From IMG/VR virus record IMGVR_UViG_2671180921_000012: a stretch of DNA of 64,000 nt; one strand, given 5' to 3'. Positions within the stretch are counted from its first letter, which is position 1, and each line of letters opens with the position of its first letter. The DNA comes from a virus (lineage: Duplodnaviria; Heunggongvirae; Uroviricota; Caudoviricetes). Under the pieces are notes generated by a model. The model was not told the DNA's origin and made no database searches. It saw only the letters and a list, made by a program, of their open reading frames with translations. Below are positions 25,817-26,405 of this stretch, in pieces. The position numbers and the translations under genes are program-made.

Positions 25817-26149
25817 TTAGTTACCGCTGATAGCGCGGTTGTAATCATTAACGTTGTGATTCTTCCTGTTAATCCCCATCAGCATCGTTTCTGTATCGAG
25901 GATATACGCTGGCAGATCATCAAAATATTCACTGCTAAACTCTGGCATCCTGCACATAAATGCACTTTTTGGGGCAGGGTGGTTAACCTTTGTCGGCGTC
26001 GGCGTTAAATTCGCTGATCGACTCCCGGAGCAACCGCTGAGTATCAGCAGGAATGCGCTGGCGAACATTACCCGCCGCAACCAGTTGTTTCTGAACTTCA
26101 GCTTTTCGTTCCATTTGCCTGTCAGCATATTTGGCTTGTTCTGATTCAT
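25817..26149 (-). CDS. Lipoprotein, o-spanin-like (start probably 26128 or 26068)
   Basis: Lipobox LILSGC; Pro-rich mature part; 5' end overlaps the 3' end of the TM/coiled-coil gene in another frame. Confidence 0.45.
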   Translation of the reverse strand: MNQNKPNMLTGKWNEKLKFRNNWLRRVMFASAFLLILSGCSGSRSANLTPTPTKVNHPAPKSAFMCRMPEFSSEYFDDLPAYILDTETMLMGINRKNHNVNDYNRAISGN

Positions 26150-26405
26150 TTTTCACTTCCTGGCTGTGAAAATGTTGCTCTGCTTTGTTCATCGTCTCAA
26201 TGGTCTGGTTAAGATCCATTATTGACTTATCACGTTCCTTAACAGCCTGATCAAGACTGCCAATTTTCTCCATGGCTTGCTTTAGCTGATGACGTTCCCA
26301 TGCAAACCCAGCACCAACAAGTGCGCAAATCAGAACAAGAACACCAGTAGCAGCAAGTTTCTCCTTCAAAGACAAAGCTGTTTTTAACGTAGAAAAGAAT
26401 GACAT
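25983..26405 (-). CDS. N-terminal TM plus periplasmic coiled-coil protein, i-spanin-like (140 aa)
   Basis: SD AGGAGG before ATG at 26405; TM TGVLVLICALVGAGFAW then charged heptad-rich region. Confidence 0.45.
   Translation of the reverse strand: MSFFSTLKTALSLKEKLAATGVLVLICALVGAGFAWERHQLKQAMEKIGSLDQAVKERDKSIMDLNQTIETMNKAEQHFHSQEVKNESEQAKYADRQMERKAEVQKQLVAAGNVRQRIPADTQRLLRESISEFNADADKG

Follow-up and report, generated by a model that had tools for sequence, protein, structure and literature searches.

The overlapped genes ppfA and mlp beside the replicon of a P1-like plasmid-prophage are a catalogued, predicted spanin pair

Can two overlapping genes that stand next to a plasmid replicon, and apart from the other lysis genes of their phage, encode a spanin? 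The question was raised by the window analyzed here, a 64,000-nucleotide stretch of Caudoviricetes DNA (IMG/VR record IMGVR_UViG_2671180921_000012), in which a sequence-only reading had seen the layout of i-spanin and o-spanin genes at positions 25,817 to 26,405. We studied the gene structure, its signals, its conservation and its relation to the P2 proteins LysB and LysC. The reading proved right, and the finding is an ordinary one: the locus is the already known and catalogued, predicted spanin pair ppfA/mlp of a P1-like plasmid-prophage.

The window belongs to a P1-like phage-plasmid, being 96–99.9% identical to P1, P7, SJ46, RCS47 and more than 700 plasmids. For the 2.3 kb around the pair, the identity is 96–98.7% to the phages P1, P7, SJ46, RCS47 and Ro157c2YLVW and up to 99.9% in more than 700 enterobacterial plasmids. 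Over approximately 31.5–94.8 kb, the P1-like genome MH422554 is collinear with the window; the segments 9480–12046, 29598–30026 and 48246–56788, which have little or no megablast match to that genome, are variable or accessory regions. The pair had been described as near the replicon and far from other lysis functions in the window, and both descriptions hold. RepA iterons/oriR and repA lie ~0.5–1.6 kb downstream, and the lysis genes lyz/lydD/lydE (13.5–14.4 kb of MH422554) and lydA/lydB/lydC (23.3–24.4 kb) all map outside the window. Short ORFs on both strands of 25150–25290, with the repeating patterns LLT.RD and NNKSR.VN, are the tandem RepA iterons of incC/oriR and not genes.

In the curated P1 record, the row upfC-upfB-ppfA-mlp-upfA is followed by oriR, repA and parAB, and the two genes are described as "possible periplasmic function" (ppfA, gp064) and "membrane lipoprotein precursor" (mlp, gp063). 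According to the account of Bednarek et al. 2022 (PMC9025707), the P1 pair was first identified by Summer et al. 2007, from predicted features only; the same authors describe ppfA and mlp as partially overlapping spanin genes whose operon lies apart from the other lysis genes. The Introduction of PMC9025707 reverses the i- and o-labels: in the sequences, the transmembrane domain (TMD) is in PpfA and the lipobox in Mlp. Comparison with a curated spanin set, which had been proposed as a check, found the P1 pair (NC_005856) listed in Table S1 of Kongari et al. 2018 as overlapped ("ovl"), with gp064 as the i-spanin (OIS) and gp063 as the o-spanin (OOS). That table gives gp064 140 aa, a 104-aa periplasmic domain and 0 periplasmic Cys, with "one in TMD", and its start codons and Shine-Dalgarno sequences (SDs) are identical to those found here. 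Most deposited P1-like phage and plasmid records read "hypothetical protein" or "ppfA", or have mlp truncated or omitted. Because records mislabel or omit the genes and one paper swaps the i- and o-labels, stating the coordinates, starts and signals clearly (Table 1) aids annotation; beyond the correct annotation of P1-like records, the importance of the finding is small.

Table 1. Features of the ppfA/mlp locus and its surroundings, in window coordinates and in the order of transcription
Feature	Position	Strand	Basis or remark
upfC, PAAR spike tip, T4 gp5.4-like	27526..27242	-	phrog_281/PAAR; P1 annotation
upfB, baseplate "tripod"	27290..26445	-	phrog_1559; P1 annotation; cryo-EM PMC12810830
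SD of ppfA, AGGAGG	26411..26416	-	5 nt 5′ of ATG; also in Kongari Table S1
ppfA (P1 gp064), predicted i-spanin gene	25983..26405	-	140 aa; ATG 26405, stop 25983
TM helix of PpfA, residues ~17–35, LAATGVLVLICALVGAGFA	26301..26357	-	Kyte-Doolittle and AF2 helix
Long periplasmic helix of PpfA, residues 36–110	26076..26300	-	AF2; heptad-like in membrane-proximal third (statistically weak)
Hinge of PpfA, residues 111–119, AGNVRQRIP	26049..26075	-	AF2 helix break; pLDDT dips to 57
C-terminal helix of PpfA, residues 120–139, ADTQRLLRESISEFNADADK	25989..26048	-	AF2; near-invariant across relatives
SD of mlp, AGGAAG	26156..26161	-	6 nt 5′ of ATG; inside PpfA codons Q-E-V
mlp (P1 gp063), predicted o-spanin gene	25817..26149	-	110-aa lipoprotein precursor; +1 frame vs. 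ppfA
Dual-coding overlap, 167 nt	25983..26149	-	PpfA residues 86–140 and Mlp residues 1–56
Alternative in-frame mlp start TTG, residue 24	26078..26080	-	Aligns with Met1 of P2 LysC
Lipobox L-S-G-C, Mlp residues 37–40	26030..26041	-	Followed by Ser; conserved L[SN][GAS]C
Cys66 of Mlp (mature Cys27)	25952..25954	-	Sole periplasmic Cys of complex; invariant in relatives (FMC.MP.F)
upfA, co-oriented downstream	25805..25413	-	P1 annotation
Terminator-like hairpin and T-run	25401..25385	-	12 nt after upfA stop, before oriR

PpfA, the first of the two proteins, starts with a short cytoplasmic stretch, followed by its one TMD and a 104-aa helical periplasmic domain; its gene is 96–100% identical to P1 ppfA. 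The sequence-only reading had described a 140-aa protein with one N-terminal TM helix and a long periplasmic coiled coil. The ORF is where it was placed, and its most hydrophobic 19-residue window (residues 17–35, Kyte-Doolittle 2.35) is the single such stretch; outside it, the residues E, Q, A, K and R are abundant. The sole Cys, C27, lies within the TM helix, and there is none in the periplasmic part. The net positive N-terminus (K8, K14 and K16) suggests an N-in/C-out topology. AlphaFold2 (AF2), run on a 13-homologue alignment, placed a helix at residues 13–110, a break at 111–119 and a second helix at 120–139, with a block-mean pLDDT of 70–79 over most of residues 21–140 and of 57 at the hinge, in which G112 and P119 are invariant in the PpfA alignment. 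In a crude heptad count over residues ~44–75, seven of eight a/d positions were hydrophobic, a value equaled by 13% of shuffles and thus not significant. Given the AF2 and heptad results, we regard the helical periplasmic domain with its hinge as established and a coiled coil as plausible: the helical part of the earlier description stood, and the coiled coil was verified only in part. A single N-terminal TMD and a mainly alpha-helical periplasmic domain are the features by which i-spanins are recognized (Summer 2007; Kongari 2018), and PpfA has both. Residues 120–139, the best-conserved segment of PpfA, may be where it meets the o-spanin, an interface suggested by the lambda Rz/Rz1 pair.

The second protein was expected to be a Pro-rich lipoprotein with an LSGC lipobox and a Cys, and these features are all present. 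Mature Mlp has 71 aa, with a second Cys (C66) and six Pro, five of which stand among its initial 22 residues. The lipobox ends in Cys, as in o-spanins, and the residue after it is Ser and not the Asp that o-spanins lack at +2. The +2 rule of Lol sorting is well established, and Ser at this position predicts sorting of Mlp to the outer membrane. The start of mlp can be placed at either of two codons. Initiation at ATG 26149 would make use of a conserved SD and give a signal peptide of 39 residues with an unusually long basic n-region (26 residues); initiation at TTG 26080 would give a canonical 16-residue signal peptide but without an SD. The position of the TTG is an ATG in four relatives (L085–L088), also without an SD. 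Mature Mlp is identical whichever of the two is used. The AF2 model of Mlp had a pLDDT of 49.5, too low for use, and only hints at a C-terminal helix that comes after a disordered linker. Of 528 spanin pairs, 507 have at least one periplasmic Cys (Kongari 2018), and in the present complex Mlp Cys66 provides it. Cys66 is a candidate for a homodimer disulfide, and its probable role as the o-spanin dimer link fits the rule.

The two genes were said to overlap in different frames at the 3′ end of the first, and we found mlp to lie in the +1 frame of ppfA, sharing the last part of that gene and running 166 nt beyond its stop. Spanin genes are embedded, overlapping or directly following, and this arrangement is of the "overlapped" class, as in Kongari Table S1. 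An overlapping frame may also be open by chance, with ppfA as the sole gene, and gene callers mostly skip mlp or call just its nonoverlapping tail (46–52 aa; "Rz1" with 46 aa). We compared the locus with four P1-like phage-plasmids of ~60% PpfA identity (from Cronobacter, Salmonella and Klebsiella) and with the far more distant P0100 and P0106. The +1 frame was open in 6/6 relatives, the very distant ones included, and the lipobox L[SN][GAS]C, the motif FMC.MP.F around the second Cys and the C-terminal motifs DL.(G/A)YI.D ... N.KN..VN.YN were all retained. In the four ~60% relatives, L085–L088, the SD of mlp reads AGGAGG with the ATG 8–9 nt downstream, and this ATG stands 38–39 codons before the lipobox Cys. 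The order upfC-upfB-ppfA-mlp was kept in 5/6 relatives; the contig of the sixth (L091, 1.2 kb) shows just the end of upfB upstream.

The substitution patterns also point to two coding frames. Nucleotide identity among the relatives was 0.84 in the overlap, 0.71 in the ppfA-only part and 0.80 in the mlp-only part. In the ppfA-only part, variation concentrates on ppfA third codon positions (0.81); in the mlp-only part, variation by codon position is 0.27/0.22/0.68 in the mlp frame, and the sites that vary within the overlap are third positions of ppfA codons and second positions of mlp codons. Both ORFs were intact, with 140 and 110 aa, in 78 of the 80 P1-like loci from IMG/VR. The conservation, the codon-position pattern and the intact loci together show that both genes are real and under purifying selection. 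A chance origin of the second frame, against which the similarity of Mlp to P2 LysC also speaks, is thereby already refuted, and we assign it next to no probability.

The family formed by these proteins is narrow, since an exhaustive profile search against 1.8 billion representatives returned only 36 matches. Nearly all matches from a word-indexed homologue search and an IMG/VR scan were near-identical P1-like sequences. One remote match of PpfA (P0116, E 3e-4) was set aside as evidence for being too weak and too coiled-coil-like. On its unrelated, small contig (L092:1632-3002), two genes for multi-TM proteins precede it and a separate lipoprotein gene (MKRLITLALFLALVTLPGC...) follows, a neighborhood that looks like a holin/spanin cassette of the "separated" architecture.

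At the level of families, the pair could be connected with P2. PpfA matched the PHROG family phrog_89 ("Rz-like spanin") with an E value of 1.2e-25 over residues 21–139, and P2 LysB falls in the same family (5.8e-61). Mlp matched phrog_30284 (6.6e-76) and phrog_456 (3.7e-5), both again "Rz-like spanin"; P2 LysC matched phrog_456 with 1.7e-31 and phrog_30284, the P1 family, with 5.4e-4. The similarity of the two lipoproteins is visible also in direct comparison: BLASTP aligned Mlp and LysC over 68 aa with 35% identity (E 2e-7), through the signal peptide, lipobox, Pro-rich linker and a conserved Cys-x-M-P, where Mlp Cys66 matches the Cys of LysC. For PpfA and LysB, pairwise BLASTP and profile-versus-sequence hhalign were not significant, and the two are linked through the family profile only. 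The top NCBIfam matches were the corresponding P2 models, with scores far below the cutoffs: TIGR03495 (P2 LysB) for PpfA (19 bits, cutoff 92.75) and NF038368 (P2_Rz1, LysC) for Mlp (14.3 bits, cutoff 27). By these comparisons, PpfA is a distant relative of P2 LysB and not an equivalog. A Pfam search of PpfA and Mlp matched no spanin family. The family links and the shared +1 overlap make "P2 lysB/lysC type", the label originally given to the layout, valid for both the gene arrangement and distant homology.

We consider it very likely that ppfA/mlp are the two-component spanin of the P1-like phage-plasmid, a lytic function that we infer. The genes do not lie together with holin and endolysin genes in one lysis cassette, a location that is typical of spanin genes and not obligatory, and their surroundings have to be weighed. 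Directly upstream are genes for late structural proteins, which supports the spanin reading: upfC encodes the spike tip, and a 2026 cryo-EM study (PMC12810830) describes UpfB as a "tripod" anchored on it. For spanin genes, a place in one row with baseplate genes is an unusual neighborhood. The transcription unit probably ends at the terminator-like hairpin after upfA. Because both upstream genes encode baseplate proteins, the arrangement argues for late coexpression of the pair with them but does not prove it. In the diverged P1-like elements L085, L086, L088 and L089, a Phage_gp49_66 (PF13876) gene stands downstream of mlp, either in place of upfA or beside it. In L089, no Rep3 (RepA-type) Pfam hit was obtained among the genes called downstream of the pair, yet the block upfC-upfB-ppfA-mlp is present, so the spanin pair travels with the baseplate genes and not with the replicon.

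The promoter signals are less clear. We built a motif for Lpa-dependent late promoters from LPlyz and window matches (AAGTGACTT-N4-TANNNT) and allowed up to two mismatches. One match, 20535-20553 (-), precedes the major head gene 23, and another, 39816-39834 (-), falls within the baseplate cluster; none was present in 25800-27800, including 27527-27720 upstream of upfC, at ≤2 mismatches. The curated P1 record has only predicted sigma-70 promoters here, inside upfB, and a generic sigma-70 scan performed no better than shuffles. The main text of the P1 RNA-seq papers makes no mention of ppfA or mlp. As the transcription unit is shared with the spike-tip genes, stands beside the replicon and has no recognizable Lpa promoter, expression in the lysogen is possible. 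It is accordingly conceivable, if improbable, that the pair is not a usual late lysis function, being made already in the lysogen as preloaded, inert spanins or having an extra envelope role. It would be new if the pair were dispensable for outer-membrane disruption or regulated unlike the other P1 lysis genes.

A fuller departure from lysis would be an envelope function in the plasmid-prophage state, for example lipoprotein-based exclusion or envelope modification from sigma-70 promoters. The pair adjoins oriR, repA and par, away from the lyz and lyd genes; sigma-70 promoters are the only predicted ones annotated and the Lpa motif is missing within 2 kb; the genes are nonessential for plating in a CRISPRi screen; and P1 has other lipoproteins of unknown role (plp). 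On the other hand, both proteins resemble the P2 LysB/LysC spanins at the family level and carry the full spanin signature in the +1 overlapped architecture, the co-oriented neighbors upstream are virion baseplate proteins and not maintenance genes, and the synteny kept in L089 goes with downstream called genes that gave no Rep3 Pfam hit. Taken together, we find such a function unlikely. Still harder to accept is an action at infection together with UpfC and UpfB, such as a membrane-fusion aid to DNA entry, to which we give very little credence. The pair is co-oriented and contiguous with upfC and upfB, whose products are a proposed membrane-piercing apparatus (PMC12810830), yet the P1 virion proteome paper and the cryo-EM paper name neither PpfA nor Mlp in their main texts, the homology is to lysis proteins, and a tail that is put together in the cytoplasm could not incorporate a Sec/Lol-exported lipoprotein and a membrane-anchored protein.

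The CRISPRi data require a closer look. Genome-wide CRISPRi knockdown of mlp or ppfA caused no plating defect (EOP 0.19–1.3), and both genes were scored nonessential. Spanin defects are, however, masked by shaking or plating (Bednarek et al. 2022, PMC9025707); plaque assays are a poor test for spanins, so this result is uninformative about spanin function. Apart from the screen, public databases contain many 195-aa (one 193-aa) "PpfA-Mlp" fusion ORFs (P0003, P0010, P0017, P0019, P0028, P0039, P0046 and P0041). They change frame at different points of the overlap, which points to independent 1-nt deletions; at L097:1501-2088, a C is absent at oriented nt 313, outside any homopolymer. Unless they are assembly errors, the fusions are natural spanin-null alleles in P1-like plasmids. 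Together with the CRISPRi scores, the many frame-fusing alleles could be taken to mean that the pair is a decaying or redundant remnant, with P1 released by its SAR endolysin and multiple holins or by another outer-membrane disruptor. Yet nearly all of the IMG/VR loci are intact, purifying selection on the two frames is clear over a protein divergence of ~40% and more, and a spanin defect would be maskable under the conditions of shaking and plating; we judge decay or redundancy to be very unlikely.

With a two-component spanin as the preferred reading, most steps of its action can be proposed by analogy with lambda Rz/Rz1; localization, complex formation, the disulfide, membrane fusion and the timing of expression are what we infer. 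PpfA, as a type II protein, would insert in the inner membrane, with its helical domain spanning the periplasm. Mlp would be exported, acylated at Cys40, cut by signal peptidase II and taken by the Lol system to the outer membrane; its dimers would probably be locked by a Cys66–Cys66 disulfide. PpfA residues 120–139 and the C-terminal ~40 residues of Mlp may bind each other across the peptidoglycan, through its meshes, and so make a bridge that the intact wall keeps inert. After destruction of the wall by LydA, the holin, and Lyz, the SAR endolysin, the spanin complexes would move freely and collapse, and the freed complexes would fuse the inner and outer membranes, removing the last barrier to virion release.

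Compared with known systems, the locus is closest to the P1 reference, with which its DNA is 96–98% identical; several E. coli plasmids reach 99.9%. The ppfA and mlp genes of P1 are the same in lengths, frames, SDs and the synteny upfC-upfB-ppfA-mlp-upfA-oriR-repA, and differ by few substitutions: Mlp has LLTLSGC in P1 and LLILSGC here, and R98 in P1 and H98 here, and PpfA has I45 in P1 and M45 here. The P2 pair LysB/LysC is similar in size (141/96 aa, compared with 140/110 aa here) and shares the o-spanin gene in the +1 frame that passes the i-spanin stop, with an overlap of 146 nt (167 here). Unlike the unlinked P1 pair, it sits in a lysis cassette, Y-K-lysA-lysB-lysC.

The experimentally characterized embedded prototype, lambda Rz/Rz1, shares its topology and presumed mechanism with PpfA/Mlp. 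Common to both are a type II protein of the inner membrane, whose periplasmic part consists of two helices and a hinge, and a small, Pro-rich lipoprotein of the outer membrane that is read from the +1 frame. The Rz1 gene is, however, wholly within Rz, whereas mlp overlaps ppfA only in part; Rz has two periplasmic Cys and PpfA none, and mature Rz1 has 40 aa in contrast to the 71 aa of mature Mlp. The lambda proteins belong to phrog_13 and phrog_3198, different from the P1 families, and the P1-type proteins are not members of the lambda families, BLASTP similarity to Rz and Rz1 being not significant and limited to short stretches (E 0.26 and 0.003, respectively). The spanin genes of T4, pseT.3/pseT.2, have the separated architecture in contrast to the overlapped one of P1, their sequences are unrelated, and the T4 o-spanin requires two Cys, whereas Mlp has one. 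Like the P1 pair, PseT.3/PseT.2 combine an i-spanin without periplasmic Cys with disulfide chemistry on the o-spanin, and they set a precedent for spanin genes that stand apart from those of holin and endolysin.
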